From Okamejei kenojei (taxonomy: Eukaryota): DNA of 64,000 bases. Positions 2,139 through 64,000 of this stretch are shown here, piece by piece; the first letter of the stretch is position 1; every line of letters starts with the position of its first letter. The notes under the pieces are model-generated. The model saw only the letters and a program-made list of their open reading frames with translations, did not search any database and was not told the DNA's origin. The stretch lies in the NCBI GenBank assembly GCA_035221665.1, contig CM069139.1:71362001-71426000 (forward strand), written 5' to 3'. The position numbers and the translations under genes were made by a program.

Positions 2139-2514
2139 CTGGAAGAGAAGCAGAGGAAGAGTGAGCACATTGGAAAAGTTAAGTATCTACTTTCCACTTT
2201 AAAAATACTTGGATGAGAATTTAGTGTGCAGATATGCATGATCTGGCATGGCATATTACAAAAACAGGGTGAAGAGGAGCAGAATGGGCCTAACTCTTCT
2301 AAAGAGCTGCTTGAGCACAATGGGCCACATGGCCCGTGCCTGTGCTGCATAATTATGCACAATTCACGATGACTCATTTTTTGTTTTTATCTGCAAAGAG
2401 AAAGTAAACCAAGATTTCCTGTGCCAATTCTGAATGTTTTAAGCAAGCTTCCTATGTGTACTAATTCGACGTGCTTTGAACAGACAATTATAAGCATCAT
2501 CAGATATTGAGGAT

Positions 2515-2695
2515 AGACACACAAAGCACGAGTAACTCAACGGGTCAGAAAGCATCTCTGGAAAAAAGGAATAGGAATAAGAAAAAGGAATACCCATTCC
2601 TTTTCTCCAGAGATGCGTCCGTCCCACTGAGTTACTCCAGCTTTTTGTGTCTATCTTCAGTTTAAACCAGCATCTGCAGTTCCTTCCTACATAAA
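2515..2695. mobile_element. Short Penelope-derived fold-back element with 11-bp TSD
   Basis: Inverted gagtaactca...gcatctctgga arms; TSD atattgaggat at 2504-2514 and 2696-2706. Confidence 0.75.
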
Positions 2696-2834
2696 ATATT
2701 GAGGATTGGACTATGCCAAACTGGCTTGATTGTACTCATGCATATTATGGTTGGACTTGAGTGGATAGCACTCAAACAAAAGCTTTTCACTGTATCTCAG
2801 TACACGTTGCAATAATAAACCATTACATCCAATA

Positions 2835-3478
2835 CATACATGGTTCCCTGAAAGTGGAGATGTAGGTGGACAGGGTGGTGAAGAAGGCATTTGGCATCTT
2901 CATTGGTAGGGTATGGAGTACAAGAGTTGGGACATTGTGATGCAACTGTACAAGTCGTTGGTGAGACTACATGGAGCACCGTGTGCAGTTCTGGTCACCC
3001 AGCTATAGGAAGGATGCCTTTAAGTGGAAAGGGTGCTGAACAAATACACCTGTTTGAATTACACAGAGAGAGAGTGGACAGGCTGAGACTTTTTTCTTTG
3101 GAGCTTGGGATAAAGGGTGGCCTTATTGAATTTATAAAATCGATGAGGCATGGATATGGTGAAGAATCAAGAGTCTTTCTCCACAGGGTAGAGGATTCTA
3201 AAACAAGGATGTATGCTTAAGGTGAGAGGGAAGAGATTTAAGAGGGACCTCAAGGGCACCTATTTCTTTCAGAGGGCAGCCCGTATCTGGAATGAGCTGC
3301 CAGAGGAAGCTATTGAAGCGCTTATAATTATCACTTTCAAAATATATATGGATACATATATGGATGGAAAGGCTTTAGAGGATGTGGACCAAATGCAGGA
3401 AAATGGGACCAGCCCAGAATACCAACTTAGTCAGTATAGACAAAATGGTCCAATAAACATGTTCCATAATTCTATTAC
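2835..3478 (+). mobile_element. CR1 (HER1-type) LINE 3' fragment, decayed
   Basis: ORF remnants RLRLFSLE and YFFQRAARIWNELPEE, typical of the CR1 ORF2 C-terminus. Confidence 0.85.
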
Positions 3479-3499
3479 TGTGCGCAATACTTCAATTAT

Positions 3500-4895
3500 G
3501 CAGAAACAAAGAACTGCAGATGCTGGTTTATACCACAAAAGTGCTGGTAACTCAGTGGGTCAGGCAGCTTCTCCGGAGAAAAAGAATAGGTGATGTTTTG
3601 GGTCGGGTCCCTTCTTCAGAATGAAAGTAGGGGGTGGGGGAATGGGTTAGAAGAACTGGAAGTGAGAAACGACCAGGACAAATCACGACCAGCAACAAAT
3701 AACTTTGGGCAGTGAGGTGCCTTGGTAGGCCCACTAATAGCGAGAGAAGGTGCGATCTCAAGAGGGATACAATCTGGTGAACTGTGGAAATGGTTAAATG
3801 ACTAGGGTGGAGGAAGGGGGGAGCTGAAGGAAGTGTTGGTAGAAGTTACTTAAAATGATACAATTCAACATTCATCCCCCTGGGCTGTAAGCTGCCCAAG
3901 TGAAATATGAGGTCCTGTTCCTCCAATTTGCATGTGGCCTCACTCGGCAATGGAGGAGGCCCAGGACAGAAAGGTCATTCAGGCAATGGGAAGGCAAGTT
4001 GAAATAGTTAGCACTGGGAGGTCCCGTAGGCATCGGCGAATCAAGCACAAGTGTTCAGCTAAACGGCCGCCAAGTCTACGTTTGGTCTCACAGGAGCCCA
4101 TACCTGGAACTCTGTCAGTAGCTAATAATTTAAACTCCCCCTTCACCTCCCCACATTGAATTTTCTGTCCTGGGCCTCCTCCATTGCGAGAGCGCGATCA
4201 CACGCAAACTGGAGGAACAGCCCCTCATATTCCGTGATGGTATTTTCGATCATAGAGTCATACAGTGTGGAAACAGACCTTTTGGCCCAACTTGCCCACA
4301 CCGGCCAACACTACACTAGTCCCAGCTACACTAGTCCCACTTTCTTGCACTTGGTCCATATCCCTCCAAACCTGTCCTACCCATGCACCTGTCTAACTGT
4401 TTCTTAAACAATAGGATCGTCCCAGCTTCAAGGTGTCAGAGGTTATGGTGGGAAGGCAGGAGAATGGGGTTAGGAGGGATAGATCAGCCATGATTGAATG
4501 GCAGACTTGATGGGCTGAATGGCCTAATTCTACTCCTATTCCTTTTGACCTAATGCCATTAACCAGCCCCAATCCCCCTTCACCTAGTCCCATTTTCCTT
4601 TTATTCACTTATTTCCCCCTCCCCCACAAACACTTCCACCTATATCCCTCCCTTGGGGCTTTACAATTTACTCCTTTTATCTTTTTTTCACCTTTGCCAC
4701 TTTACATTTGCCAAGCAAACCCACCTATCACTTGCTTGTCTATTTCCCAGCCCCACCTCTCTTTCCCAGCTTTCTTCCCCCTACTACTCTCAGGCTGAAG
4801 AAGGGTCCTGGCCCATAAAGTTGCCTGTCCATTCCTCTCTACAGATGCTGCCTGCTCTGCTGAGTTCCTCCAGCACTTTGCTTTTCGCTCTACAT
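3500..4895. mobile_element. Penelope-like element remnant with inverted ends and GIY-YIG fragments, interrupted by CR1 tails at ~4250-4545
   Basis: ETKRRLG.R.AEH and RKLEEQ.LIF remnants in opposite orientations; family terminal sequence at ~3510-3620 and ~4795-4880. Confidence 0.7.
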
Positions 4896-5261
4896 CTCCA
4901 GTGACATTAGTTACGTGAAATTTCAGGATGGCGAGGGTTGAGTGCAAGAATAGGTCTGTGTATATGGGATACTAATCTCTGAAGGTCTGAAGATAGGGGC
5001 TCACCAAAACATACATTGGAAGGTTGGAATTAACCAAACAACTAATCCTTGAAATTGAGTTTCAGCTGTGGTTCTCGGATAGCAGCCTATCCTCAAGTCC
5101 CAATCCAGAGGTGCAAGTACAAAATCTAGATGGCTAGTTGTAGTGCGCATTGGGTGGATGAACTGTCAGAAAACTTTGCTCTAAGTAAACATTAACAAAA
5201 CCCTTTGAGTGAGCATAAGCAATCCCATTTTGTCCCAACTATAATAATGGAAAGAAACTTT

Positions 5262-5402
5262 GCCAATGTATAGGAGTCCACACCTGGAACAGCGGATACA
5301 GTAGCTGAAGTTTGAGGAGGTGCAAGTGATCCTCTGCCTCACCTGAAAAGACTGTCGGGGTCCTTGGACCAAGTCGAGGGGGGAGGTATAGGGACAGGTG
5401 TG
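5262..5402 (-). mobile_element. Penelope-like GIY-YIG endonuclease fragment
   Basis: Translation QSFQVRQRITCTSSNFSYCIRCSRCGLLYIGK. Confidence 0.8.
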
Positions 5403-5473
5403 CACCTAGCCATAGCAGACTTACAAGGAGACATTGTTACAGGGCAAGTAAGCCTAATTCTTTCCCTTCATAC

Positions 5474-5587
5474 CTTGCAGCATGGTCTGCTGCTGTTTTG
5501 CAGTGCAAATTAACCGGCTGATGCCTTCAATCACTTGGCTCTTCGATTCCAATTCTTTGTCTTTTGTTTTCTTAGGCAAAAACATCA
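5474..5587 (-). CDS. PACS2: PACS2 exon (V)[37 protein letters not shown]
   Basis: ttacag acceptor, gtatga donor; 114 nt, phase 1-1. Confidence 0.95.
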
Positions 5588-6308: not shown

Positions 6309-6392
6309 ATTTTCATTTTTGATATTAGATTTCCAGCAACTGCAGTTCTTTGATTTTAAACAAGTAAAATCCTGCTCTCTGTAGTCTCTTAC

Positions 6393-6622: not shown

Positions 6623-8345
6623 CTGACACGAGACAAGCAGGGTGAAGTTACTGAACCTGCCAAACACTTCACATTAGCATTCATCAATGGCACATCGCTT
6701 TTAACAAAATAACAAACGGAACCACGAGCAAACCCCGTGCAGTAACATGCAATAAATATGATCCACATGAAGATGCAATAAATTCATGGCAGGTGCATTT
6801 ATCCATGTGACACCACCACAGCATTAACCTTTGATCTCTACTGGAACTATGAAGAAAAAAAATGTGATAACACTAATGCTACCAGCTACATTGGTACAGG
6901 CCTATGGAAGGTCCCGTGATTACTTTAGCTTTACCTGCAGAGCAGAGGTGGATTAGAGTAAATAATTAAAAAATGGAGAGCAAAACAAAATGCCAGGTTG
7001 AACAGATCCACTGCCACCGACAGGAGGCCTTCGGTCACCATGGGGCCCCCACTCCTCTCACCATCTGTCGCTTCCTAGGTGGGGTATGTTGGCGACTCCG
7101 AGGGAGGTGGGAAGAGGGGTGGAGAAAGAGGCCGACTGGACAGAGCGATGGGAGAAGCAGGTGGCCGGTGGTGGAGAGGACAGCGCCAACAGCAAGAAAC
7201 AGCAGCATGTGATAGGGACTCGCTGATACACCTTGCGAGTCGGGAGTGGGGTCGTAGCCAGGGCTCTAAATGACCGGGGAGGTGGTGGGAGCCAGGGATG
7301 GGTCGGCACGTCATACTATTCACATTCAGTTAACAACGCCATCTGTGGCCACTCAGGATATTTCAACGGAGCACTTGTAACCGATTACCGGGGGCTGGCG
7401 GTGGGAAGATGACAACAACTTCAGACTTCAGTTGACGGAGAGTCGGTGCTCAACATGTGCTAAAATGTTTTTTTTTTAACCATCCGACTAAGATTGACGT
7501 TAAAAATAAATAGTATGCCAATTTGAAGTTTAGCCAATATAGTCCAATTCTTGAATAAAATAAGCACTGTCACATTACATCTTGGCCATGTTAGCCTAAA
7601 CAGGTTAGACTCCAAGAACTTTCTGTTTAATTAAATAAAATTGAGCTGAACACCACAGTGACAGTGTCAGTGGATGCAACATTGTCAAAGGAGTCATCCT
7701 GCAGATCAAATGCTGGACCCCCAAGTTCCATCTCAGATGTAAAAAATCCTAAGGCTTAAAGAATGCCAACCAACACACAAGCCTCGTCAAGGGTCCCGAC
7801 GTCACCTCCAGATTTTCTCCAGAAATGCTGCCTGACCAGCTGAGTTACTCCAGCATTTAGAGTCCATCTTCACTAGAACATAAGGTATCTTTCTATCTTC
7901 ACAGTTGCTGCCTGACCTGCTAAACACTGCTAGCATTCTGCTCTCACTTCAAAGACCTCATTAATTTATTTAGAAAGAGATCAGTATATTGTTCCCAGTG
8001 TTCTGATCAATATTCATCCCTCGCCTCTAATCAAGACAATCTGACTATTATAACAGTGCTACCCAGGGGAAGCTGCTGTGTACAAATTGCCTGCTGTCTT
8101 TTCTATGTTACAATAGTGACTACATTCCAGTACAATAGATGCCAAGTCAGAACAAGGTTGTGAAATGCACTATATTTAGTACTAATCTCTTTTTCAAAGG
8201 CAATCAATGCCAGCTGAAATCATTGGCGTGAATCCAATTCTTACTGAGTGAATGAACAGCAAGTTCGATTGCGCAAAAAATAAAAAATAAAAAAATCTGC
8301 CTGACGATATACTTTAAACTGCACAAGTCCATCTCCAATACTTAC

Positions 8346-12262: not shown

Positions 12263-13188
12263 AGATTTACTGTAGTGTTGGATGACTGTGAACCTGGGAC
12301 ACACCAGTATACAGTCACAGCAATTCCTGCTACAGGCTGTTCAGGAGAAGACTCACGCACTTTCATGCCTGTACTGCAGTTACCAGGAGGGATGTCAGCA
12401 CACTCCAAAAGCTTGATTAACACACACTCAAATCACAAGCATCTTTAGTTCAAAAGGCAGGCCAAGAGGCTATCGACTAGCTCGCGAATAAACAGGGGTA
12501 AGAGAAGCAGCAGCAAAAAGAAGGCATACATTATTTTTTAAGCCAGTCTTTTCCTTTCACTTCATTAACAAGGAAGTAATGTTTGCACACATAGCTTGCA
12601 AAATAACTTGAGGAAAGCAGAGAGACAGAGATAGTATGATTTAATTATAATTGAATGGCAAGAAATGAGTCCAGTTTTGAGACTATCCTGAAGTACACCA
12701 GGAAGTGGCATGAGGAAATCACGAACAGAAAGAATTGTTTCAGCATCGTACCCTTTGTCACACAATCAGTGCAAAGGGTCAGTGGGGAGTCAAATAGAGC
12801 ACCAAATTCATCAATTGTGGGGACCACTAAAATTTGAGGTATTGATATTTTTAAAAAAGGTGGGAAGAATAATTTCAAAGAAAAACCCAAACTCTCATTG
12901 CTGAAAAAGGCTATAGAGAGGGATTACTGTTGGTATTTATATTCAGCAGCACATCCCAGCGCCATGATCATTATGGCCAAGAACAACAGCACAACAGCCA
13001 TTCTTTCAGCATTTCCTTCCCCGTTGCTTTCTGATCAACTGTGTATGTTGCCATTCTCACACGGTTGCAGGGTCAAAATCTTGGCGCTCCATACCCATCA
13101 TTGTGGGAGTACCCTCACTGCACCAAACTCAAGGGCAACTATTAATGGGCAATAAATGGCTTCGAGTCAGCATTATCAATATGCTGAA

Positions 13189-13420
13189 GATAGACACAAA
13201 ACGCTGGAGTAACTCAGCGGGCCAAGCAGCATCTCCGGAGCGAAGGAATGGGTAATGTTTCGGGTCGAGACCCTTCTTCAGACCAAGTTTGAAGAAGGGT
13301 ATCAACCCGAAACGTCACCCATTCCTCCTCTCCAGAGATGCTGCCTGTCCTGCTGAGTTACTCCAGTATTTTGTGTCTATCTTTGATGTAAACCAGCATC
13401 TGCAATTCTTTCCTACACTA
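13189..13420. mobile_element. Penelope-derived fold-back element with two hammerhead-like cores and 14-bp TSD
   Basis: ~95-bp inverted arms; TSD atcaatatgctgaa at 13175-13188 and 13421-13434. Confidence 0.8.
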
Positions 13421-13889: not shown

Positions 13890-15552
13890 CTTTATTGAAA
13901 GCAACCACAAGAAAACAAAAATCACGTGTTATTACATGGACCAAGCTGCACTCACTAGAGGGTTGGTCAGTACAAGAACTTGTCCCTGCCTTGCTGGATG
14001 CTTACATTCAAGCACTGAAGACGGTCCATGTGCACATTGCAAACAGCTCACATTTTTATTAAGTTCATTATCGCAGAGAGTTAGGCGAGATCCAAGGCAT
14101 GACAAAAACAGAGGAAGAGCTACCAAAAGAATGTACCAAAATTGCATTCAGAACAATTACATTTTCAAATGCCCCCTCTACCTCTTGCTTTTATTTCCAT
14201 TCCTGTTGCCTAATAGAAGCAGTGGCTTGTACAACAGGTTAACGATTGTATATCAAAGATAGACACAAAGTGCCATAGCAGCTCAACGGGATGGACAGCA
14301 TCTCTGGTGAAAAAAGGATAGGTGCCGTTTTGAGTTGGGACCCTCGTTCAGACGGTTGATCAGTACTAGATATATCTATCTGCTGAAATAATGAGACTGG
14401 TGATCTATAAACTGTATATCATGGTCACTGTGAGATTTTAAACACACATGCTGTGCTGGGAGGTGGGATGGAGGAGGGGAGGGCAACTGGACCTGTCTAT
14501 ATTGTCCGAAGTATACGGCTGTTGCCTTTTAACCTGGATCAATTTCCGTCAGGCCGCCAGTGGAATAAGGTCACGCAGGACAGATGGGTGGAGAAAACTA
14601 AGATATTAAAAACTCTCTGAATACAGCTAAATACATCAGATTTTTTTGAACCGTCTGAAATTTTCCTTCACCCCCAATCACCCCAACCCCCCTCCCCCCC
14701 CAAACCCTCCCTCTATTCTAAATCATCCTTACAATTTTCCTTTTTGGTGAAGCCTTACTCTTTTGGTTTTGTTCGATATGCTCATGTTAAGTTTCCTGAA
14801 GCTTTTGATATATTGGAGGTGCAATTCAGAGCAGGTTGTAAAAATATTCGGCTCTAACAACGTGGGAGTTATTAGTGGAGACGAGCAAGTTAGCATTTTG
14901 AAGCAGCTTCAATTTCACTTTTTTTTAATGCTTCACTTTATGAAACCAATGCATTACCTCTTGACATGCTTGTAATTGATTCAGAATTAGGTATATGGGT
15001 TTGCTGCCAAGATTCTGCTACAAACCAATGAATGCAGCAAACAGAACGTTCATTGCAGACACAGCAAAATATTAGGTAGGAAGTCTACCTTAACTTCAAG
15101 CTCCTGTTATTTTTTTTCCTAGCTGTTTTGACATATCGTGCTTCAGTTACACTTAATTGACAAAACAGTTGTAAAGAACATGTGCAACATTGCACAATAA
15201 CTGCCAACAGGAAGGGTCATTGGAATTATAAAATATCACAAACACAAATTTGGTGAACCTTAAATATCATGATCCCAGGTTAACATAACATGACTTCATC
15301 ATCGGACTGTGAGGATGCTCGTATCACATACCTCTCTGTATTGCTAGTATCACATACCTCTCTGTATTTGGGGCTATTCTTGAAGAATTGACACCAGAAT
15401 GGAGAGCAGACTTTTGGGAGACGTCTTCATTAACAATTAGACAATCATTAACAATTTAAATTTTATTTTAGCGCTGTTTATCAATGATCAGACAAAAAAG
15501 CTTGTAATATAGTCGTATTTGTTTTTTTTGTATGTATTTTTTGCAAACCATC

Positions 15553-19640: not shown

Positions 19641-19648
19641 GCATTTAA

Positions 19649-20070: not shown

Positions 20071-21054
20071 TTCTATTTAACTTTAAACATTTATATTGGG
20101 TGTAGTATGTGAGTTACAGCTTTCGAAAAAGATTTTCACAAAGTATTGAAATTTAATGGGAGATTAGGTAATCTGATGTAAAATAGTCTCATTATAGAAA
20201 TACAGATATTATGTCTTAAAGTGTGACCGCCATTATCACTGAAGCTTAACAGCAAGTAATATAGATAGGCATTTCACTTAGAAATCATTAGCATAAAACC
20301 ATAAGGACAGTTAAGGGATTTTTAATATCATGTAAACTTTGAAAGCTAAGAAGCAGAACAGATCATTTCATTTGTTTAAAAAGTTATGCCGAATAGTTCA
20401 AAAAGTAGCTTCCATTGATTTATTGGTAACAAATTTAAACATCACATTAAATAGAAATTGACAAAATAATAAATGTTATTATTTAACATCTTCATTAAGG
20501 AAAAAGCATTGTTGAAAAACGTTATTCAAAGTGCAACTTAATGCCATGACGGGAGATTTGATGCACTATATATAGGATTGAGCAAAGATTGGTCAATTAA
20601 TTTGTAGATTGATATGGCCCAGCGGTAACATTCGTTATCGAATTGTAGTTATGAGTTAAGTGCCATTCTGGATACTGGAGTACAAAATCTAAGCTGGAAC
20701 TTCAGAGCAGCACTAATGAAGTTTTCACCATCTAAAGAGCTTCATTGACATTTGTACGAGGCTCTCGCAGGTGGACACAGTGTTTCAAAGCACCACTTTA
20801 AAGAAGAAAAAGGAACCTCAATTATTTAAGCCATAAGATTGGTCATTCTTCTTGTCACTGCTACATAAATGGAAATTATTCTCTCTTTTATGCTTGATGA
20901 CTTCTCAAATACAATCTGTGGACAACATCTCCAATGTTAAGATTACCATTTTAAACCAAGAAACTAACTAAACACACTTAACATTACATTGTAATTTAAA
21001 GTAGCCCAATTTAAGAAATGGGACGATTGCAATGCAAAATTACATGTTCCTTGT

Positions 21055-21329
21055 TGGACACAAAATGCTGGAGTAACTGAGCAGGACAGGCAGCATCTCT
21101 GGAGAGAAGGAATGGGTGACGTTTCGGGTCGAGACCCTTTGTAAGACTGTAGACTTCAGACTGGTGCAGTCAGCAAGTCCAAGCAGTTTCACAGGCTGAA
21201 GTATATAGAAGGGTCTCACCCCAAGCGTCACCCATTCCTTCTCTCCAGAGACGCTGCTTGTCCTGCTCAGTTACTCCAGCATTTTGTGTATCTTTGGTTT
21301 ACACCAGCATCTGCAGTTCCTTCCTACAC
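21055..21329. mobile_element. Penelope-derived fold-back element next to the donor of exon 21346-21456
   Basis: Inverted acacaaaatgctggagtaactgagcaggac arms. Confidence 0.8.
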
Positions 21330-21345
21330 TTTGCATAGTCCTTAC

Positions 21346-22699: not shown

Positions 22700-23535
22700 T
22701 GCGCTGATGTGTGCACCTACCATCACCCGACTCCAACAGTAAATGTCAAACCATCTTTGCTTCTCTGACACCGACCTCAACTTCTCCGGAATTATTCATC
22801 AAATCCAACTTTCCAAACCCACACCCCTCCCTCCTGTCAACCCCCTGTTACCCTATGCCATCTCGGCAAACCTCTCCCTCCTTCCCAAGATCCACACACA
22901 GGTTTGCTATGGCAGGACCATTATTCCACTCTGTTCTTGCCTCCATGGAAAGAATTTCCTCCTAACTTGATTTTTATTTTCTCTTGTTCAATCTTTTCTC
23001 AATTAATCTAATGTCAACAATACCATTTTGCTGGCCCCAATTGTCTCATTTTCGCCTCTGATGTCTGATCTCTTTATGGCTCTATTCCTCACTGGGATGG
23101 ACTGAGAATGTTCCAAGTTGTTTAGTTTCGAGTTACAGCATGGAAATTGGCTCTTCAGCCCTCCTCCTCCTCCTCGTACAATATCTTTTGTCACATCATC
23201 TCTCCTGCCTTTTACCCACATCCTTTCATATTTCCTCTATCTTTGCTTAAAAACTATTACAACACTTAAAAGTTTTCCTTCTGATAAATGGACATTAACC
23301 GTTAAAAGTTGCCTACTGGATAGAATTTGCCTGATGAGTATTTCCAGTATTTTCTCTTATTACCAACCCAGATTTGATCTTGACCTCGGCTCAAAATATT
23401 TTCTGAAGAAGGGTCTTGACCTGAAACGTCACCCTTTCCTTCTCTCCAGAGATGCTGCCTGTCCCGCTGAGTTACTCCAGCCTGTTTTGGGTCTATCTTT
23501 GGTTTAAACCAGCATCTGCAGTTCTTTCTTTCACA
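22700..23535 (+). mobile_element. Penelope-like RT remnant followed by terminal-repeat copies
   Basis: LLPKIHTQVCYGRTIIPLCSC resembles the PLE RT motif LPKIHK...GRPIVS; family terminus at 23401-23535. Confidence 0.65.
23403..23430 (+). ncRNA. Minimal hammerhead-ribozyme-like core in a PLE terminus
   Basis: CTGAAGA-A-GGGTC-TT-GACCT-GAAA-C-GTC fits CUGANGA / stem II / GAAA / GUC. Stem I is only ~2 bp and activity is untested. Confidence 0.5.
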
Positions 23536-23621
23536 ACTCTTCATCCAAAATAGTATTTTTGGACAACGTGAAATATTGCATTAGCGAACTTCCAATATTT
23601 TTAGTTGTAACATGAACATAC

Positions 23622-25532: not shown

Positions 25533-25657
25533 GTTTAAGAAGGAACTGCTGATGCTGGAAAATCAAAGGTAGACAAAAGTGCTGGAGAAACTCAGCGGGT
25601 GCGGCAGCATCTAAGGAGTGAAGGAAATAAGCACAAAAGTGCTGGAGAAACTCAGCC
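25533..25657 (-). mobile_element. Short PLE terminal fragment with 11-bp TSD
   Basis: gaaggaactgctgatgctgg...gctggagaaactcagcggg; TSD aaaattaagat on both sides. Confidence 0.7.
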
Positions 25658-28964: not shown

Positions 28965-29051
28965 TCAGCTATACACAGGTGCAAACATACCAATACATGC
29001 ATATTATACAAAAAAAATATTATCAAGAAAACCAGAAATATATCAACTCAC

Positions 29052-29827: not shown

Positions 29828-29960
29828 AGTCTGAAGAAGGGTCTCGAACCCGAAACGTTGCCTATTTCCTTCGCTCCATAGATGCGGCCTCACCCGCTGA
29901 GTTTCTCCAGCATTTTTGTCTACCTTCTATTTTCCAGCATCTGCAGTTCCCTCTTAAACA
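29828..29960 (+). mobile_element. PLE terminal fragment with hammerhead-like core at 29831-29859
   Basis: CTGAAGAAGGGTCTCGAACCCGAAACGTT followed by the family terminus. Confidence 0.7.
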
Positions 29961-30464: not shown

Positions 30465-31222
30465 TACCATCCAAATGGTGGTGGGTGCATGGAACGAGTA
30501 GCCAGAGGAGGTAGTTGAGGCAGGTACTATCGTAATATTTAAGAAACATCTAGACAGGTACTTGGATAGTTCATAAGTTCTTAAGTAATAGGAGTAGAAT
30601 TAGGCCATTCAGCCCATCAAGTCTACTCCCCCATTCAATCATGGCTGATCTATCTCTCCCTCCTAACCCCATTCTCCTGCCTTCTCCCTTTTATCTCTGA
30701 CACCCATACTAATCAAGATTCTATCTATCTCTGCCTTAAAAATATCTATTGACTTGGCCTCCACAGCCTTCTGTGGATAGAGCAGGTTCAGAGGGATATA
30801 GGCCAAACCTAGCCATGTGGGACGAGTGTAGGTGGGACATGTTGGTCTGTGTGGGCAAGGTGGGTTGAAGGGCCTATTTTCACGCTGTAAGTCTGTTTTG
30901 CACAATAGGAATAGGTGACGTTTTGGGTCAAGACCCTTCTTCAGATTGAGAGTCAGGGGTGGGGGAAAACTAGAGGTACTGTATGAAAAGGTTCACAATC
31001 ACAGAGGGGGAACAGTGAGAGGGTGTTGTGGAACCCGGCAGGGAAATGAGAACCTCTTCAAAGTAGACGTGCCTTGAGGAGATTTTGCAGTGGAGCAGAC
31101 AAAATGTGCAGGAAGGAACCCGAAACATAACCTTTTCTCCAGAGATGCTGACCCGCTGAGTTACTCCAGCATTTTGTGTCCATCTTCAATGTAAACCTGC
31201 ATGTGCAGTTCATTCCTACACA
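30465..31222. mobile_element. Nested CR1 tails (plus-strand copy interrupted by a minus-strand copy) followed by a PLE fold-back element
   Basis: CR1 motifs; tggatag repeated around the inner insert; PLE termini at ~30905-30950 and ~31130-31220. Confidence 0.7.
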
Positions 31223-41400: not shown

Positions 41401-41869
41401 GAATCCTTGTGGGGCAGGGGTTATGCTGGTGATACTTTGGAGAAAGGGTTAACATGAAGATGGACACAAAATGCTGGACAAGCAGCATCTCTGGAGAGAA
41501 GGAATGGGTGACGTTTCGGCCAATTCCCTGGATGTTTTCAAGAGGGTTAGATTTAGCTCTTAGGGCTAAAGGAATAAATGGATATGGGGAAAAAGCAGGA
41601 ACGGGTTACTGATTCTCAGCCCTAGATAACACCACAAACAGCTTACAATGCTTGTTCCCTTTATCATCAATACTTTTTTGCATATCTTTCATTCATTGTT
41701 CCTTATCTTCCACATCACCGTCTATAGAGTCTGAAGTCTCGACTCGCCTATCTCCTTCGCTCCTTAGATGCTGCTGCTGAAAAGATTTTTAGATAATCAG
41801 CCATGATCCTGGTTTGAAGGGCCGAAAGGCCTACCCCTGCACCTATTTTTCTGTTTTCTATGTTTCTAT

Positions 41870-42934: not shown

Positions 42935-44969
42935 TTAGAGTACTGTGTACTGTGTGCTCATTCAGATCGCTACACAATAGGTCACAAACACACTGGTGTT
43001 GTACATCAGATTTACGAGCCAAGACTAGAGAATTGTAATTATGAGTACAAAACCGAGAGACCTGTTTGGAAAAGTCCTAGGGGAGATTTACTTGACTCGT
43101 ATAAAATTATGCCGAGTTAACAGGAACAACCAATTTTCCTTAGCTAGGGGACTTAAATGTAAAGTTATTGGCAGATGGACCCAAAGGAAAACAAGAAGAA
43201 TCATGGAAGTTATTTGTAGAGGAAAATGTCAGCCCACTTTTTTTCCAGCTTTTGCCCTGCCTACTACAATCAGTCTGAAGAAGGGTCCCGACCAGAAAGG
43301 TCTTCTATCCATCCCCCAGACATGCCACCTGACCCACTGAAACACTTTGTTATTTTCAATAACATTCCTTGTAACTTCATCTGCCCTCTTTGCTTAGTTT
43401 GAGATGATATTTTACACAGTACAGTGGGTTACATGAATCTTTACAAGTTCCTCCATAATCCAAGTCTGAACTTGATTCTCTTTGATAAGATGACACTCTC
43501 CTCTGACTGCAGTAAACCCACATACTAATCAACTCATGAATAGCATAGTCGTTCTGTGCTCATAAAACATTCTTGCAAAGTCAGCAGGTGTGGGAGATAA
43601 TAAATAACTGAGACCTATGGATTGCGATTTATTACCAACATCAAGCAACCTGGGTCAATTAAAAGACAAAAAGGTGCAAGAAAGTCACGAGATTACCCTC
43701 AAGCAAGTTCTAAATCAAGTCAAGAAAGTTTAAAATCTATGCAGATGAAAGTAAAATGTTATGTTCCATTTTATTTGTCATACAGAATTTGTCATTTCAG
43801 CATAACCAGTGAAGTTGCTACTGAATATAATATATGCACTTACAAGAGGGATCTAAACACAATTTTAGGTAATACAAATAAAAGCTCTCTTTAAAAAGAA
43901 TGAAAGCACTAAAATTTCCTGTTGCATATTGGAACATTTCATTCCCGCTAGCATTTAGAGGATTGATTTTCTTATAATAGGTTTACTGCATTGTGTTGGC
44001 TCAGAAACTCTGCAGTAGCAATCCTCCATGGTCAATGGAAAAGATGGACTAATTAGTTGTCTGTTTTGAGAAAATCCTATGATGATATTGACTACTGAAA
44101 AGCATTACTGTGGGGGAGGTGGGGAGTGGAATGCTAACTTCTAGAGAAAAATCCATGCCAAATGAACATGGGTGCACACAACTTTAATATGTAACTTGTA
44201 AGCATGGGTTCATTAAGCAAGCAATGCACTTTGATACTCACTGTTTGTGGAAAGGCTTCATGCCACCTCCATGTGATCAGCTAGTCATATAAGCAAGTTT
44301 AAGGCTTTGATGGTAGGGTGCATAGGAAAAGGAATCAGCCATTTCTTTCTCAGATCCATTCAGTCATTCACTTTGCCAATGCTTGCATCTTGTCTCAAAT
44401 TTATTTATCCTTTAAATTGTTACTTAATAAAAACTATTAACTTTAGCTTAGCATTTTTTTGGAAGCAAACAAAGCAAGGTGAATTAATGCTTCCTGACAT
44501 AACTCCAAGACAGTTCGCTCTAATTTTAAGTATAAAAACACTCATGATCTGGGCTCGCCATCAAACAATTTGTTTCAAATTATCCGATCAAATCCTTAAT
44601 CAACTTGACGAGCTTCTTTATTTTTAGGAAGTTAATCTTAGTTAATGCAACTCATCCACTTCAGTCAGGACTGATATAGTACTAAAGGACAACATTTTTT
44701 CCTTCTGGGTAGTTGAGAAGGACTTCTGGGCACATAACTTCTGGTAGCTTTCTATTTATTAGATTTCCAGCACCATAACTTCTTTAAAGATCTGGACCTC
44801 ACATAATTGTCCTTCTTGGATACTCTTATATTTTATAGGCGTGTCACTAGCAACATTTTTGGATGAAATTGTATCAGAGGGATGGTCATCAAAAATCGAC
44901 AGGTTAACAATTAGCGATGCCTCAGAATCTCACTATCTTCTAAGGGAACAATTCATTAGAGAGAACTTA

Positions 44970-45183: not shown

Positions 45184-47019
45184 TTACAAGGTCACCCTGA
45201 AAACCATGAGTTATCCTTCTCTCAAAGGACTTGGAGTATTCATTTTGACAGTGCAAACAAATCTCCCAACAGAAATATAGAAGGGAAACTATGTCCAACT
45301 TGGAGTTCCAAAGGTTAATTAACCCTGTATAGGTAAAAGTAAAAGTCACAGAAAACTGATTTGCATGTGAGAGAGAATATATTGGAGGGTATATGGAAAT
45401 TGGAGGGACAGATGACATTCATAGGATTGGTCTCCCAGCAGCAAGCATAGACTGGTGGGCTTAAGATATGGATGTATAAGATTAGAGCACATTTAAAACT
45501 GCAACAAAATGCAATTGTTCCTTCAAATGCCCAGCTGACAGGATAAAGAGGATCAGGAGGCTGGTTGGTCAGCATTACAAAAAAACGTCATGTCTCAATG
45601 ATTTGATTGAGCTTTTAAATAGATGATCTAGAAGTCTGAGGTCAGAGCGGTAAATATCGATATGGACTTTGACAAGGTACCACATGGGAGGCTGGTCTGC
45701 AAGGCGATGTCACATGTGATCCAGAGCAAAGTGGCCAATTAGATACAAAAATTAGAATGAAAGTTGGAAGCAGAGAGTATTTTCCACTCAGAGTGTGATA
45801 TGCACATCGAACAAGTAGCCAGAGGAAGTGGAAGAGTACAATTCTAACATTTTAAAAATAGTTACATAAGTTTGGAAGGATGTGGGTCAAACACAGGGAA
45901 ATAGGATGAATTTGGTTCGGCAACTTGGCCAGCATAGGCGAGTTGTGCCAAATATCAATCTTCCATGCTGAATAGTTCTAATGATTCCAGGTGTCCTTAG
46001 CCCTACTTTCTGAAGTGGCTATTACTTAGGACAAGAACACTGGGAGTACAACCAACATACTGTCATTGTGCTGAACACTGGCTTATTTGGCTCAGACATT
46101 TCTATATCTGCCCAGTAAAAAGTTGAATTACTTCTGTCTGTGCATGCCAGAACCTTGCAGAAAAGTGTTGGAGTAACTCAGTGGGTCTGGCAGCATCTCA
46201 GGAGAGCATGTGTAGGCAACGTTTCGGGTCAGATCCTTCTTCAGGATCTGATTGTAGTCGGGGGAGAGGGGGTATGAGGGAGAAGCTAGAAGAAATGTGG
46301 GGCTGGGACAGTCTGGCAAATAATAGATGAATGCAGGTGAAGGGTGTTTTGATCGGCAGATGGTTGGACAAAGACCAGAGTGAAAAGGCAATAAGTGTGA
46401 GATAAGGAGACAAGGATAGAGGGCGGTGAGCCCAAAACACAATGCCTGGGGTAGTGGTGGAGGCACATATACGAAAGTGATGGTTAAGAGGCTTTTGGAT
46501 AGGTACATGGAAGCGCAGGGAATTATGCATTTGGATCATGTGCAGGCAGATGATCAGTACAAACATTGTGGGCCAAAGGGCCAGTTCGTGTGCTGTACTA
46601 TTCTATGGTCTATATGGATAAAGTGAATGCAGTAGGTGGAATGGATATGGATTAAGGCGGCATTCAAATAGGCTATCTTACAATAAAACAATGCTGATCA
46701 ACAGCTATGAAACGTGATCCCTGAAGTATGCCAGACTAGGTTGCAGATCACTTCACACCATGAGATAGAGAACATTAATATACCATTTCAATTTTTTTCC
46801 TGAAGAAAATCAGGTGGCAAGACACAAGAAATGGTCCAAATGCAATAACAAGGGGAAGCACAGGATACTCTTGGTTGGAAATTGGGACGTCAGACTTTAT
46901 CAATCAAGGTTAAACACTGAATTCTGTACTTTGCATCAGACGTGGCAAACCTGACAGCGTTTGCTGCTGGATTCACCAATAAGCTCAGAGCCAAAGCACC
47001 GACTCAACATACACCCAAC

Positions 47020-47390: not shown

Positions 47391-47784
47391 CCCATGGCAG
47401 GATGTTCAACTCTTTCGCTTTTTAAGGCATTTCCACACGTTTTAGCATGATTTAAAATTTAATTAAAGTTTAATTTTTCAAACATTATAATTATTTATAG
47501 AATGCAAGGGCACGGAAACAGGCCATTGGTGTTTGAAGAAGGGTCCTGACCCAAAACGTCACCTATCCATTTTCTCCAGAGATGTTGCCTGACCCACTGA
47601 GTTACTCCAATATTTTGTGTCTCCCTGTGACAGAAATAGGCGCTTGGGCCCACTACGTCCATGTCAACCATCAGGCACCCAATCATCCCATCTACTAACA
47701 TTTGGTCTGGAGCTGAATCAATGTAGAGGAGTGTTGAGGTGTGGCATGTACAGTGGGTCAAAGGACCAGTTTGCTTTATGCTTT

Positions 47785-57990: not shown

Positions 57991-60174
57991 ATCATTTAGA
58001 TGACATACGACTTCAAACAATTCTAACCTGAAACATACATCACCTTAACCAGCCGGATTGGAGATGATAGTGTCATTCCCATCATCACACTTGACGATCA
58101 CACTGCTATACATGACATTTTAATGCATATACATTATATGCATTTATTCTCCACTCATTGCATATTTTCTAAGCAACATGATCCATTTCTTCAGCAACTT
58201 TTAGACTTCCTTCTGAGCAAATTAATTTACAGAATAACAAACTGTTTGCTGCGAGTCATACTTCCAGCTCATCAGTCGATGCAAAGCTTGACCAAGGAAA
58301 AACAGATAAAGCAATGAGCTGCCCATTAAACAAGCCTGTTCCACTTATATCAGCTTTCATTATTTCATCTTCACATATCTGACATGACCTTGAGAACTTT
58401 CAATAGAAAGAATGTCCAAAGCTGCTAATAAACTGTTAGTTTAACTTCTCTGCCTCATCTACAAAAACTAGAATTGCAAATGTTAATGTCATAAACTGCC
58501 TTAAAATTTTCCAATTACACTTTTAAAGATTTCAACACCACAACTCTTTATGCTGTCTTTACTATTCAGTCCTTTTAGTGTGACATTTTGCATCTCTTAT
58601 ATGTCACCTGTCCAACAGCAATTCAACCAACAAACCTCACCTTCTTATTTGCTTACAATCTCCTTCAAACGGAAGCACACATGTTCGTCTGTGTGGAAGT
58701 GCCTTGGGAAATTGCACTGAGCTAAAAGTATAACAAATATTTGCAAAGAGAGGAGTTATAATGTGATAAGAGCCCAAAGTCTTCCACGGGAATGTCAAGC
58801 ATAGAAGGTCATGGCACCAACTGGATTGCTCTTTGAAAGAATTGCTGCAGTCAAGTTAGGATAAATAGTCACATTCTGTACTATTCTAATATTCTACAAA
58901 ATATGGCACCTATGTTATTTATTTTGTTTGTTTATTGGACTGGGGCAATACTGATAATAAAAACATAAATTGCCAACTTCCATCAAGAAATTGGCTGTGA
59001 ACCAAGTTCTGGGCTGCTGAGTTTTATTTTATTTGTTTATTCTTAATGTTTTAATGTTTTATGTTTTATTCTTAATGGTTTACTGTATGTCATGATGTTA
59101 CTTGCGAGTGGAACACCAAGGCAAATTCCTTGTATGTGTACTTACTTAGCCAATAAACTTATTCATTCATTCAGCCCATTTGGTGAGGAGATTTTACATT
59201 ATTGCTGGATAAGGAGTTTCAATTGTGATGATTTCTAGGACAGCCAAGCTTGTGGCTTAGAGAAGAATTTACAGGTACATTCCCACGCAACTTCTCTCTT
59301 GTACTTGGAGGCAGTTTAGATTTAGAGTTTGTACGATGGTGTTGAAAAAGCCTTGATGAGTTATGGTAGTGCATTTTCTGAATGATACTGCAGCTTGCTC
59401 AATATCAGATGACTGTGGAAATTAATCCTAACTCACTGTTTGCTTCCTGTAGATACTGTTGCATTTATCTCTGATGATAAATTCATTCTCTGAGTTCAAC
59501 ATGGCAGTGAGCATCCAAAATATAGTTAGCATGTCCCAGAGCACCAAAAGCCTACCAAAATATATATCACTAATTAAACAACGGAAGGCATGGAAAACTC
59601 CTGTTATCAATCTTGTGTTCTTAGTACTTTTCTTTATGGCTGTGAAAGTTGAGTTCATATACTCCAAGCGGGAGCAGAAATTGAACTTGCAACCATCAAA
59701 GTCTCAGTAAAATCCTTGCTATCACTTAAGACTAAGAATCACCAACATTATGATACTGAGCAAACTGACCTGCAGTCTACACTGATGGTACATGTGGAGC
59801 ATGTACTTCAAGTTCGTCTGCTGAAGGCTGTTCTCCGTAACCAGCATCAAAATCAAAGAATGGAAAAGAACTCTGACGTGGCAACAAGGTGAGAAGTTTG
59901 GAATTCCCGTTGACAACCAGAACACCGCTCAGAGCCACTATTTGAAGGTGGCAAGTGAAGGGTGGCTCAATCATCGTGGAAAAGTAACAACCCAAGCATG
60001 CTAGCCAAAAAGCCAAGCATTGCCCAATACCACTTGATGAGCAGATTGAAAGCCACTGTGTTCATTCCAGCGTGACATACTCTTATCCAACACCACCACC
60101 AGAAACTAATAAAAGATTGATTTTGTAGAGTTTCCTTTCACTTGTCAAGACCCCATCCAGTCTTCTCTACACAA

Positions 60175-60378
60175 TAGATAGACACAAAATTCTGGAGGAA
60201 CTCAGCGGGACTGGAAGCATCTCTGGAAAGAAGGAATGGGTGACATTTCCGGTTGAGAACCTTTTTCAGACTCAGGCTGCAGAAGGGTCTCGACCCAAAA
60301 CACTGCTGCCTGTCCCACTGAGTTACTCCAGCATTTTATGTTCATCTTTGGTATAAACCAGAGATCCTTCCAACACAC
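60175..60378. mobile_element. Penelope-derived fold-back element
   Basis: Inverted family arms; imperfect TSD ending in acacaat. Confidence 0.7.
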
Positions 60379-62049
60379 TCCTCCACACAATGTTGTGGTG
60401 GTCTGTCATTGGTAAAAAGACCAAAAGTTTCAGATGGTGCATTGGGGGTCCAATTAATTGAACTGCTTTAACTTGGATAATACTAAGCATCTTGCGTGTT
60501 GTTACAGATGCAAGTGAAGAGTAACATGTCCTATCATGCTGCCCACATGTACATCGTCATGATAAAGAGCTATCAGGAAGTAAGCTACTCACTACAAGTA
60601 CCCAGCATGGGACCTGACCTTGTGGCTGAAATATTTGTGAGACAGGTTTAAGAAGTTTCTGGTTAATTGGTGATACCATAGCGTTGATGATGGACAACTT
60701 GCTGTCCGTAAAATCACTGAATATCAAAGAGTATTGGTCAGACTCTTGTTGCACATGTTTATTACCTAGCACTTACACGGTGCGAATATAACTAGCAGTT
60801 TATCAATTCAAATTGGATTGTTTTATTTTCTGAGGAATTAAAAATGGTATCAAACAATCAGCAGCAAATATCCCCTTTTGACCTTATCACAGAGTGAGGA
60901 CATTAAGTAGTTGCAAACCTAAAGCATTGTTCTGCAACAGTCTTCAACCAGAGACGATCTAGCTTTGAAAAGGCACACTCGTATTTCTTTGCACCAGCTG
61001 TGGCTCTTGCCAAGGAGAGGTCTGTCCTTTTAGTATGGGTCCCATGTTATCAAGAACAGTCCCTGTCTACCCATTCATGTTTGAAACAAGAATAAAATAA
61101 GATCTGCAGATAAAAGGTGCAATTTTCCCAGATCGTCGAAAACTTAGTTGTACCAGAACAACTTTGTTACAGGGAAGATTTTTTCTGGAGTATAAGTCTT
61201 TCTGCAATACAGCCAAGATCTGACTGTCCAGAGAGGGCCCTCTCTGCATTTACTTTCCTCTGCTATGTGCTTACATTGTGGATTGAATAAAGTCAGATTA
61301 AGAATGGCTTCTGTGACAGTGAGCACATTATGAGGAAGTGTAGAGTCGTTCGTTCAGCACTGACAACACAATTGTAATTGCCTCAGCTGCAGTCAGAACA
61401 ATGATGTTCTTTGAGTTTCATCTCTTGCACACTGCCCACCACTGATCACTAACAGATGGGACCTGAATGCAGGGGTTGCATTTGACATAACAATTTGGCA
61501 ATTTGACACATTTGACAATTATGGGATCACCCAGCTGAGTATTCCATGCTGCTGCTTCAGTGCAGTCAGACAACTTCACCCACGGGCTGATTCTCTTACC
61601 ATGTGCTGCAGAACCTATCCAGTATCTGTTATGACTTGGCTTTGTCAATCAAGTAAAGTGCCACTGAATGTCTTTGGGAAATGGAATCCATAATATCTCA
61701 CCCAGAGTGTATTTTCTCTCTCTCCAAATTGTGGTAAATATGGAACACTCTTCACAGACAACTGAGGTTCATAGACGGTAATCAGGAAGTTTTCTTGTCC
61801 CAGGTGCCTGGAGATGTTTCCAAGCTACTCAATTGTTTGTCACTTGCTGGTCTGTCTTGTCAACTGGGCACAACAAACTCAGGAGAGTGATGGCAGTGGC
61901 CAAAATGCTGGCTGAAAGATATAGCTACTCTCAGTAGTACTCTCACTTCTCTCAGTTTAGGTACTTGTCCTCAAATGTTCATACTTTGCAAAATTGATTA
62001 AACTGCGACTACTTCTGCCCTGAGCAAGTCAGGTGCATAGGTCATATGG

Positions 62050-62392
62050 TGATACAGTTGTGGAAACAAGCCCTTCGACCCAACTTGCCTATGCCGGCCA
62101 ACATGTCCCAGCTACACTAGTCCCACTTGCCTGTGTTTGGTCCATATCCCTCCAAACTTGTCCTATCCACGTACCTGTGTAACTGTTTCTTAAATGTTGG
62201 GATAGTCCCTGCCTCAACTACCTCCTCTGGCAGCTTGTTCCATACACCCACCACCCTTTGTGTGAAAAGGTTACCCCTCAGATTCCTATTTAATCTTTTC
62301 CCCTTCACCCTGAATCTATGTCCTCTGGTCCTCGATTCCCATACTCTGACAAGAGATTCTGTGCATCTACCCAATTTATTCCTCTCCTGATT
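62050..62392 (-). mobile_element. CR1 LINE 3' end
   Basis: ESRTRGHRFRVKG...FTQRVVGVWNKLPEEVVEAG. Confidence 0.9.
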
Positions 62393-62551
62393 TTATTCAA
62401 TGGTCAATGCTTGTTTTATGCTTGTGTTTGTAGTGTGGTTTGGCATAAGTAATAGTTACAAAGCGAGTTTGGGGTCCCATTAAAAGCAATGGTACTCATT
62501 AAATTATATCCTTTATATTAGCATCTAAGAGACAGCACGCCTTATGAGACG

Positions 62552-63480
62552 CGTAGGAAGGAACTGCAGATGCTGGTTTAAACCAAAGATAGACACAAAA
62601 AGCTGGAGTAACTCAGCGGGTCAGGCAGCATCTCTGGAGAAAAGGAATAGGTGACGCTTCGATCATGACCCTTCTTCCGACTGAGAGTCAGGGCAAAGGG
62701 AAATGGGGGATATAGGTGGTAATATAGAGGGATGTAGACCAGATGAATGAAAAATATGCAAAAAGTAACGATGACCAAAAAAGGGTGGAGCCCACAATGT
62801 TCCATTGTTGGTTGTTGGCTAGGTCATAACGAGTTATAGTATACAGACAGTGAAACTCCAGGATGACAGTGAAATTAGTACGCTGACTAGGGAGTAGGAG
62901 GGCATGCAAGGGTTACATGAAGTTAGCAAAGTCAATATTCATATTGCTGGGTTATGTTGCCCAAGCAAAATATGTGGTGCTGTCCATCCAATTTTGTTCT
63001 TTGAGATGCTCGACTGACAAAAAAAAAGAACAGTGTCGCACATGCCATTGATTAGAAATCCCCGAATAACGCACTTTTGTATGACTCACTCCTCCATCGT
63101 TGTTGGGAAGTTAGGTCTAAAATAACAGATTTTTTAATTACACCCTAGTGGTATGAATATTGATTTCTCTCATTTAAGGTAGCCCCGGCATTCCCTCCCC
63201 CACCCAAGTTGCTTCTCGTTTTCACCCTATAAACAGCTAACAATGGCCTGTTTCCTTTGTCATCGTTACTTTTTTGTATGTCTTTCATTCATTGTTCTTT
63301 ATCTCTCCACATCACCATCTATATCTCTTGTTTCCCTTATCCCTAACCAGTCTGAAGAAGGCTCTTGACCCAAAACATCACCCATTCCTTCTCTCCAGAG
63401 GTGCTGCCTATCCCGCTGAGTTACTCAGGCTTTTTGTGTCTATCTTCGGTTTAAACCAGCATCTGCAGTTCCTTCTTACA
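62552..63480. mobile_element. Penelope-derived element with long inverted ends
   Basis: The ~62552-62900 arm is inverted relative to ~63190-63480; decayed GIY-YIG C-terminal remnant near 62910-63000. Confidence 0.78.
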
Positions 63481-64000
63481 GATTTTTACTTATTTTGTTT
63501 TTATTCAATTTGCATCCTTATGTAATGCAATCCATGACCAATCCAACATTCTCTGTGAAATCCCACTCTGCCTCACATTTCCGCTGTCCTGATCAAGAGA
63601 TAGGTCAGGACGTTTTGATCAGCAACTGGTGATTTCAATTTGGGTTGCTATTATTGCACATTTATGCCAGAGAACTGTTAAAAATATAGTATTACATTTC
63701 TGTGTGCGAATGGAGTCGGCCATCCAGCCTCTCGATTCTAATTGACCATAGCCAATTTGTTACTGGGCTCTATCAACCTATTCTGTTAATGTATTCCTCA
63801 ATATTTCTTAACAAACTCTGACTTAGATTTGACTTTTTAAAAAGACTGTGACAATATATTTTTAGGTGAGAGTGTTCTGGATTTCCACTACCCTTTATGT
63901 GAATAAGTGCTCCCACAGTACATCCTTGATTTTAAGAAGGGTCCCAACCCAAAACATCACATATTAATGTTCTCCAGAGATGCTGTCTGACCCGCTGAGC

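Follow-up and report, generated by a model that had tools for sequence, protein, structure and literature searches.

The 64 kb stretch of DNA analysed here (the window) is populated by copies of one short repeat, most of them carrying a hammerhead-ribozyme-like core, which marks the 5' end of the unit. A search profile built from eight copies recovers 25 of them at E<1e-9 (14 on the + strand and 11 on the - strand) and 36 matches at E<10; the same profile run on the reversed window returns two matches, the best with an E of 2.3. The recurring terminal sequence of the original prediction, estimated at about 20 copies, is therefore real. Measured from the core to its distal end, the unit is ~130-135 bp long. 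The whole core is covered by 19 of the 25 aligned copies, and the repeat material occupies ~4.6 kb, or 7% of the window. In bacterial and archaeal genome contigs, the core has 0 matches.

These repeats probably represent the pseudo-LTR (the 3' terminal segment) of endonuclease-bearing Penelope-like retrotransposons (PLEs) belonging to several related subfamilies, and survive as 5'-truncated, decaying copies, many of them within PACS gene introns. Four traits of such elements are seen in the window: (i) the C-terminus of a GIY-YIG endonuclease upstream of the pseudo-LTR, (ii) 5' truncation with an inverted partner, (iii) a one-sided tail of 30-40 bp and (iv) target-site duplication. GIY-YIG remnants lie upstream of two copies, and weakly of a third (Table 1).

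Identification of the endonuclease came through a four-fragment alignment search only; protein searches with single endonuclease fragments, or with a reverse transcriptase (RT)-like fragment, returned no matches. The database proteins that identify it score 15-20 bits against the Pfam GIY-YIG model, below the curated cut-off of 22.6, and the two named matches are Leucoraja erinacea gene models; these proteins look like gene models built on repeats. PLE protein remnants had been placed near the same termini, and for GIY-YIG this is borne out by tblastn and profile matches joined to the termini. It does not extend to the PLE-RT: the candidate at ~53400-53900 (-) has no database matches, lies ~6 kb from the nearest core and is RT-like by its resemblance to RT motifs. 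The window contains no full-length element and no confirmed PLE reverse transcriptase.

Table 1. Repeat copies, head-to-head pairs and endonuclease fragments in the window (C3 and G12, core positions; + numbers, positions along the unit; UTR, untranslated region)
Feature	Position (strand)	Description
Head-to-head pair	2514..2690	Arms begin at predicted cleavage site (+30, +29); tail on + arm only; ~16-bp target-site duplication (10/11 matches, p 0.001)
5'-truncated PLE	3504..4092 (-)	Frameshifted GIY-YIG C-terminus 3849-4092 (tblastn, P0001 of the protein database, E 8.7e-15, 61-62% identity across three frames; profile matches), pyrimidine-rich 3' UTR, core C3 at 3619, G12->A, tail; nhmmer E 1e-26
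Inverted partner arm of 3504..4092	4134..4900 (+)	GIY-YIG C-terminal piece 4134-4244, then UTR, core C3 at 4795; broken by unrelated dispersed repeat 4250-4555; no target-site duplication for the pair
Isolated GIY-YIG N-terminal fragment	5256..5336 (-)	tblastn and profile matches
Copy	7789..7873 (+)	Starts inside core (+7); no tail
Head-to-head pair, short copies	13188..13419	Cores 13281- / 13289+, 7 nt apart; tail on + arm only; perfect 13-bp target-site duplication
Solo short copy	14250..14353 (-)	No tail; core decayed
Head-to-head pair, short copies	21053..21330	57-nt junction with repeated start fragments; tail on + arm only; possible duplication (8/11, p 0.07)
Solo short copy	23402..23536 (+)	Core bases all intact; stem I down to 1 bp
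Copy	25533..25657 (-)	Begins at predicted cleavage site (read by eye against 29831+; automatic call +34); 25-nt internal piece in tandem before; perfect 11-bp target-site duplication
Solo short copy	29828..29960 (+)	Sole copy with 11/11 scored core bases and 7/7 scored pairs intact; duplication 9/11, p 0.011
Head-to-head pair	30907..31222	- arm: UTR and core (C3 at 30944), ends +38; + arm: begins inside stem II, with tail; duplication 9/11, p 0.011
Diverged copy	32730..32869 (+)	5' end ambiguous, possible short UTR (p 0.13)
Isolated GIY-YIG fragment	39369..39459 (-)	GIY-YIG 39369-39446 (tblastn E 6e-07), abutting inverted tail fragment 39438-39459 + (only E 0.25)
Copy	41447..41529 (-)	Starts inside stem II
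UTR-bearing copy	41636..41775 (+)	Internal deletions through core; E 0.002
Copy with UTR	43230..43346 (+)	Core at 43275; 3' part decayed
Copy with UTR	46162..46460 (-)	Core at 46244; no tail
Solo short copy	47531..47629 (+)	No tail; C3 and G12 changed
Head-to-head pair, short copies	60173..60376	Cores 60269- / 60277+, 7 nt apart; tail on + arm only; target-site duplication 10/11, p 0.001
5'-truncated PLE	62553..63015 (-)	UTR, core C3 at 62679, tail; weak endonuclease remnant 62950-63015 (profile iE 0.012); nhmmer E 2e-43
Long copy	63190..63481 (+)	UTR common with 62679-; core at 63352, G12->A; tail
Solo short copy	63930..64000 (+)	Cut by window end

The hammerhead core and its decay

The motif is a minimal type I hammerhead in a PLE pseudo-LTR, as had been proposed; its second stem needs redrawing. 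A 5-bp stem closed by a 2-nt loop cannot form, so stem II is a 4-bp helix with a 4-nt loop. The CUGANGA core and one unpaired base before stem II have the expected base in the majority at every position, the inserted base being A in 19/19 copies. The G10.1-C11.1 pair that closes stem II, followed by GAAA, is G-C in 17 of 22 cells, and the helix is 85.5% paired. G12 is kept in 9/19 copies, with losses mainly at CpG. The stem III palindrome has the majority sequence A-C-G-U, the next base being C (14) or U (4) among the 19, and helix I has 2 bp, paired in 80% of cells. The weak, diverged copy at 17123+ has a different, 4-bp helix I. The extra A, the palindromic stem III and the 2-bp stem I are thus all present, but they are not unusual, since each is already found in the 2014 consensus or its examples (PMC4209133).

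Five copies had been named as the best preserved. All five have the motif, but intactness fails in three: G12 is changed to A in 30917-30944, the stem III palindrome is lost in 13254-13281 and stem II is damaged in 46218-46244. A strict minimal-hammerhead descriptor passes two loci (23403+ and 29831+), against a mean of 0.045 and a maximum of 2 in 200 shuffles. Almost every copy in the window has a broken hammerhead, and decay looks neutral, the core being no different in this from the remaining unit. The excess core conservation and the compensatory stem II changes called for earlier are not seen within the window: non-CpG divergence is 10-13% in the core versus 13% downstream (p 0.31-1.0), and a two-sided change occurs in no stem II pair and in 0 of 8 helix pairs overall, the copies being close relatives that decay neutrally. 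Both results are expected of dead copies and so say little about the source elements.

A covariance-model scan against Rfam returns no hammerhead family among its seven matches at E<=10, and the miRNA-family matches at 2503-2663 arise from an inverted pair folding as a hairpin. RNAalifold finds no consensus structure, and a single full copy shows no folding advantage over its shuffles (z -0.31). In the predicted fold of the consensus, the core pairs with a downstream pyrimidine tract, so that the core of a monomer would be sequestered; the hammerhead fold is predicted to be 5.8 kcal/mol less stable, with a pairing probability of 0.04 for stem II and about 0 for stem I.

The hammerhead of the source elements is probably a weak ribozyme, assisted by dimerisation or by protein and dispensable for insertion. 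It is possible, though doubtful, that this lineage's source elements themselves carry a vestigial motif, which has lost cleavage and been kept as a promoter or protein-binding sequence. The 2 bp of stem I and the predicted fold are consistent with such a loss, as is the failure of 8/9 tested Xenopus retrozyme dimers to cleave. The loss of G12, seen as CA in nine copies versus TG in one (p 0.02), could mean that some source elements lacked G12. However, the hammerhead base is the majority at each catalytic position (G12, at a CpG site, is tied 9:9), and the scissile bond is the start of three arms. A poor predicted fold is, moreover, compatible with activity, since the Anolis PLE hammerhead cleaves only with the protein of the element.

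Copy ends and the mode of insertion

Seven head-to-head pairs lie in the window. The 3' ends of the 25 copies fall into two main groups, 11 at +126 to +130 and 10 at +84 to +106, with 4 elsewhere; these two ends, ~35 nt apart, delimit the PLE 'tail'. As described for PLEs, the tail is carried by exactly one arm in four of the seven pairs, the other arm ending at +89 to +102; a fifth pair is asymmetric in another way and two are not. Target-site duplications of 11-16 bp flank 6 of 13 units at p<=0.011, with unit ends chosen by hand, and no significant duplication is seen for the other 7/13. The idea that the arms of one pair derive from different subfamily templates, raised by 2575-/2590+, is not settled by the sequence identities.

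Automatic 5'-end calls over-extend upstream because the gap penalty is too lenient, so they were set aside for upstream ends and used for 3' ends and internal starts only. Upstream ends were taken from separate comparisons of upstream sequence. A further upstream comparison, among paired copies, is confounded by the inverted partners. The 5' starts of 11/19 arms (8 insertions) lie <=7 nt upstream of the core, their upstream match to any long copy not exceeding the chance level of three shared bases. Three further arms (2 insertions) begin at the predicted cleavage site. The 7-nt core spacing is identical in two independent pairs. For 8 of 16 insertions to stop in a 5-nt window, P is ~6e-9 at a truncation rate of 0.6%/nt and 5e-5 at 2%/nt, both rates being rough assumptions. 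The cluster at the core and the starts at the cleavage site suggest that reverse transcription runs off at a fixed 5' end of the RNA and that its templates are occasionally cleaved.

Insertion may be pictured by analogy with the Poseidon element of Anolis (PMC11167929): the RT-endonuclease would make staggered nicks in the two target strands, reverse transcription would be primed by each nick at either of two internal sites located downstream of the hammerhead, corresponding to the two tail ends, and the cDNA would extend towards the RNA 5' end, so that priming from both nicks would give a head-to-head pair with the tail on one arm. The commonest short copy would then be the run-off product of an RNA that begins ~3 nt before the core, at an Initiator-like TCAGTC, which is the least certain step. 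This TCAGTC is presumed to be an Initiator from a six-base resemblance, and the same bases also resemble a 3' splice site. If the A three bases before the core is taken as +1, there is a G at +24, and four of the five bases of the DPE consensus are matched at +28 to +32.

In its fullest form, this reading treats the copy ends as fossil traces that map the PLE RNA. The hammerhead would sit at the very 5' end of the transcript, overlapping an Initiator/DPE-type core promoter; most short copies would have arisen by run-off synthesis of cDNA on uncleaved RNA, with priming inside the 5' pseudo-LTR, and the scissile-bond starters (2 insertions) would be reverse transcripts of ribozyme-cleaved RNA. 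So complete a scheme is speculative and rather unlikely to hold in all its parts. If true, the promoter overlap would explain a stem I of only 2-3 bp, and the scissile-bond starters would be genomic evidence of in vivo cleavage by a PLE minimal hammerhead.

There is some chance, though a minority one, that the 5' cluster marks not a transcription start but a stall or template-switch hotspot of reverse transcription, where the folded core meets the pyrimidine-rich UTR, or else an intron boundary. Long copies do have a pyrimidine-rich tract there (68-84% C+T), with AG 2-4 nt before the core in 5/7; in Drosophila virilis Penelope, an intron terminates on the 5' side of helix I, and self-priming has been invoked for palindromic inverted junctions. 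Short copies, however, mostly retain G or AG before the core and have no upstream exon sequence in common, which argues against spliced templates. An extra, cap-derived G is not consistently present at the 5' ends inspected by eye. From the window alone, a stall and run-off cannot be told apart.

That the short copies are instead a dedicated non-autonomous element of ~135 bp (SINE-like or a retrozyme monomer), with master copies of its own and mobilised in trans by PLE proteins, is distinctly unlikely, and the retrozyme-like, non-autonomous family of the original prediction is not upheld. The 5' end and length are fixed in 11 arms, and dispersed retrozyme monomers have been described in vertebrates, with retrozymes in one chondrichthyan. 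Against this, none of the 37 tandem-repeat rows for the window is a tandem array of the unit; the hammerhead is minimal, lacking the ~6-bp helix I with loop contacts of canonical type I; at least two copies continue into endonuclease remnants; and the diagnostic bases of short copies make up at least three distinct sets, two of them also found in long copies. On a weak tree of 23/25 rows (63931+ and 30944- left out) with 16/20 branches unresolved, short copies are interspersed with long ones: the short copies require four label changes, and 0% of 200 bootstrap trees make them monophyletic. A clade of three short copies and one internally truncated copy has support of 90/78, and the starred branches force no more than one origin, so the tree would still be compatible with a single origin of the short copies.

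Comparison with known systems

The distribution of copy ends could bear on two questions, namely PLE hammerhead cleavage in vivo and the origin of inverted pairs and tails. A genome with this many copies permits a purely computational test of germ-line cleavage, through 5' ends at the scissile bond.

One close parallel is Poseidon of Anolis carolinensis, PAc (Frangieh et al. 2024, PMC11167929), in which the hammerhead lies upstream of two reverse-transcription start sites that define the tail, and both target strands are nicked and extended, which fits the two 3' ends and inverted pairs seen here. In contrast with PAc, the window holds no intact ORF. In the sections consulted, the PAc paper describes no genomic copies ending just 5' of the hammerhead; it reports a lack of RNA reads from the cleavage site.

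Animal non-LTR retrozymes (PMC7229834; bioRxiv 10.64898/2026.07.22.740005) share the type I hammerhead, the short unit and the kinship to PLE pseudo-LTRs. What defines them is a tandem arrangement of 150-450 bp units, together with canonical hammerheads and circular RNAs. The window, in contrast, shows no tandem units, a minimal hammerhead and a predominance of inverted pairs with duplications.

The minimal hammerheads of metazoan PLEs (Cervera & de la Pena 2014, PMC4209133) are likewise close. Their consensus is CUGANGAH-G..C-GAAAN-palindrome-NUH, and most are solo copies from truncated PLEs, some being close opposite-strand pairs. The repeats described here share CUGAAGA with one unpaired base, G10.1-C11.1, GAAA, the loopless self-complementary stem III, the short helix I, the pseudo-LTR location and a predominance of solo or opposite-strand copies. 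The lengths of helix II (4 bp) and helix I (2 bp) lie towards the lower limit of those published, a 2-bp helix I occurring in 6 of the 56 rows of Fig. S3. Neither those rows nor the 31 rows of Table S1 include a cartilaginous fish. The finding adds a probable one, at high density, to a long list of animals. Such an addition to the catalogue is in itself no surprise to the specialist, and the finding is largely ordinary. Apart from the clustering of copy starts at the motif, which stays unexplained, the repeats are a further example of the known PLE minimal-hammerhead kind.

Repeat unit and hammerhead core

A profile built from eight copies of the repeat finds 36 matches in the window at E<10, 25 of them at E<1e-9; the best match in the reversed window, used as a control, has an E of only 2.3. 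The unit is ~130 nt long, counted from C3 (the first core base, +1) to its far end, and copies are named here by the window position and strand of C3. The motif is present at all five sites cited in the original prediction, but the stem II proposed there, of 5 bp with a 2-nt loop, is corrected to 4 bp with a 4-nt loop. The core is spanned by 19 of the 25 aligned copies. All 11 scored catalytic positions are kept in four of these (five once copy 46244- is realigned), and copy 29831+ alone combines them with all seven scored pairs. A strict descriptor passes only two loci, 23403+ and 29831+, against a shuffle mean of 0.045 loci, and an Rfam scan of the window gives no hammerhead match.

Neither covariation nor excess conservation of the core, both looked for as marks of selection, is seen among the copies. 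No pair has changed on both sides, with a covariation score below the shuffled mean, and non-CpG divergence does not differ between the core (24/188, or 19/188 realigned) and the downstream sequence (82/628). This is expected of dead copies and speaks neither for nor against activity of the source elements. CpG decay at four sites of the copy alignment is skewed on the sense strand (27 CA vs 13 TG, p 0.04; at C11.1-G12, 9 CA vs 1 TG). An old, diverged relative at 17123-17194 (+) (E 0.004) has flanks that would pair over 4 bp to form helix I, the second pair being different; this is possibly a between-family compensatory change (n=1).

In its predicted fold, the consensus RNA pairs the core with the pyrimidine tract downstream of it and so buries it in a helix; the hammerhead fold would be 5.8 kcal/mol costlier than this alternative. 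For an Anolis Penelope-like element (PLE), the available text of PMC11167929 reports that hammerhead cleavage requires the element's protein, and that insertion in vitro still proceeds when the hammerhead is inactivated.

A Penelope-like carrier

The element that carries the repeats is a PLE. The sequence upstream of copy 3619- matches database proteins in three segments separated by frameshifts (61-62% identity, E 8.7e-15). These proteins were retrieved by aligning four fragments of the window and searching with the alignment (6 matches among 1447 candidates); three of the five scanned match Pfam GIY-YIG, below the Pfam cut-off. The original prediction had placed both GIY-YIG and PLE reverse-transcriptase (RT) remnants at or near the repeat termini. 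The former are borne out upstream of 3619- and 4795+, and weakly of 62679-; for the latter, the RT-like stretch at ~53400-53900 (-), whose decayed frames have no pseudo-LTR nearby, finds no support in protein and profile searches. In their motifs, these frames resemble the N-terminal part of a PLE RT.

A Leucoraja myocardin isoform model (database protein P0006) includes ~30 residues of this endonuclease tail, either as an exonised repeat or as an annotation artefact. The PLE arm at 4134-4900 is broken by one copy of a second dispersed family, which resembles CR1/HE1-type 3' ends; the LINE remnant in the table is probably RTE-like. Copies located from 6.8 to 31.3 kb fall in introns of the PACS-family gene.

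Features of the window surrounding the repeat copies
Feature	Position	Strand	Evidence or remark
PACS-family host gene exons	5457-5849, 6328-6783, 31310-31561	-	Pfam Pacs-1, E 1e-27 to 4e-12
Second endonuclease arm	4134-4244	+	reaches core at 4795+ across inserted repeat
Weak third endonuclease remnant	upstream of 62679-	-	protein/profile searches
Isolated endonuclease fragments	5256-5336, 39369-39446		protein/profile searches
Tc1/mariner-type DNA transposon remnant	49293-50862		long terminal inverted repeats; HTH_Tnp_Tc3_2 and DDE_3 matches
LINE reverse-transcriptase 3' remnant, two frames	52082-53161	+	Pfam RVT_1, E 5e-4
Second abundant dispersed repeat family	4250-4555, 30472-30889, 47197-47390, 54300-54520, 62042-62324, others		
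G/A-rich tandem array	18827-19636		16-bp period
Assembly gap	~28780-28965		182 N

The architecture of the copies is also the PLE signature, described in the accessible parts of three sources as 5'-truncated partners in inverted orientation, a tail of 30-40 bp at a single end, and duplications of short length (bioRxiv 10.1101/2021.04.23.441226; PMC3846280; PMC8969392). Most of the 25 copies have their 3' end in one of two intervals, +126 to +130 (11 copies) or +84 to +106 (10 copies), and the tail between these ends is confined to one arm in four of seven head-to-head pairs. With unit ends placed by hand and 4 nt of slack, junction duplications occur at p<=0.011 in 6 of 13 units but not in the other seven.

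In the asymmetric pairs 2514-2690, 13188-13419, 21053-21330, 30907-31222 and 60173-60376, the tail-bearing arm is always on the + strand (5/5), antisense to the host gene (two-sided chance 1/16). The insertion at 25533-25657 (-), flanked by a perfect 11-bp duplication, has a 25-nt internal piece directly abutting the predicted cleavage site in tandem, an arrangement suggestive of template jumping at the 5' end of the RNA.

Clustered 5' ends

For 11 of 19 arms (8 insertions), the sequence upstream does not significantly match that of any long copy; seven carry the pyrimidine-rich UTR and one is ambiguous. Two independent pairs have cores exactly 7 nt apart. Under assumed truncation rates, this clustering has a P of ~6e-9 (0.6%/base) or ~5e-5 (2%/base). 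In Anolis, the enzyme initiates reverse transcription internally, at two sites that lie downstream of the hammerhead, and it extends both strands of the target (PMC11167929, in part). This makes run-off the simplest model: reverse transcription would stop where the RNA has a fixed 5' end, ~3 nt before the core, and paired priming would give inverted insertions. A stall or a splice-related cause may instead produce the cluster.

The sequence at the proposed RNA 5' end resembles an Initiator; with the A three bases before the core counted as +1, the base at +24 is G and four of five DPE bases are found at +28 to +32. Drosophila virilis Penelope has an Initiator/DPE promoter whose start lies 46 bp before an intron, and it is this intron that ends at the hammerhead (PMC2377424; PMC4209133, both in part), so that the geometry in the window would differ. 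In three further arms, from 2 insertions, the copy begins at the predicted scissile bond (C3 again being +1): at +29 in 2590+, at +30 in 2575- and, read by eye, at +29 in 25626-. These starts have a P of 0.045-0.11 and are only suggestive, and it seems unlikely that copy ends record both the RNA start and occasional cleavage in vivo.

Retrozymes and published PLE hammerheads

The predicted retrozyme-like identity is not supported by the evidence here. Non-LTR retrozymes are described, in the text available, as units arrayed in tandem that bear canonical type I hammerheads (PMC7229834; bioRxiv 10.64898/2026.07.22.740005); a tandem-repeat search of the window finds no array of the unit. The preprint reports retrozymes averaging 363 bp in one chondrichthyan. 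On a tree of 23 rows, four label changes are needed for the 10 short copies and four for the 7 long ones, and neither class is monophyletic in any of 200 bootstrap trees; because no more than 2 of the 20 branches have good support, a single origin of the short copies remains compatible with the tree. On this evidence the repeats are not retrozymes.

We found no literature linking hammerheads with elasmobranchs, or joining PLEs, truncated copies, hammerhead and transcription start; the related papers, mostly in titles and abstract openings, do not describe this family. Given its abundance, the repeat is likely to be in some repeat library already. PLEs occur in every vertebrate lineage sampled, elephant shark included (PMC4350176, in part).

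The other half of the interpretation, a PLE minimal hammerhead, stands: the motif is of an already known type. The published consensus, as far as the accessible portion of PMC4209133 goes, leaves one base unpaired between 9 and 10.1, has a G10.1-C11.1 pair and is palindromic at 15.2-16.2. Its 56 aligned rows include no cartilaginous fish. Such motifs number thousands per genome (~4,000 in coelacanth, ~9,000 in Xenopus). Most stand alone and are ascribed to truncated PLEs; some form close opposite-strand pairs. Helix I has 2 bp in 6 of the 56, and the fish examples, like the window copies, have C-G-U-C after GAAA.
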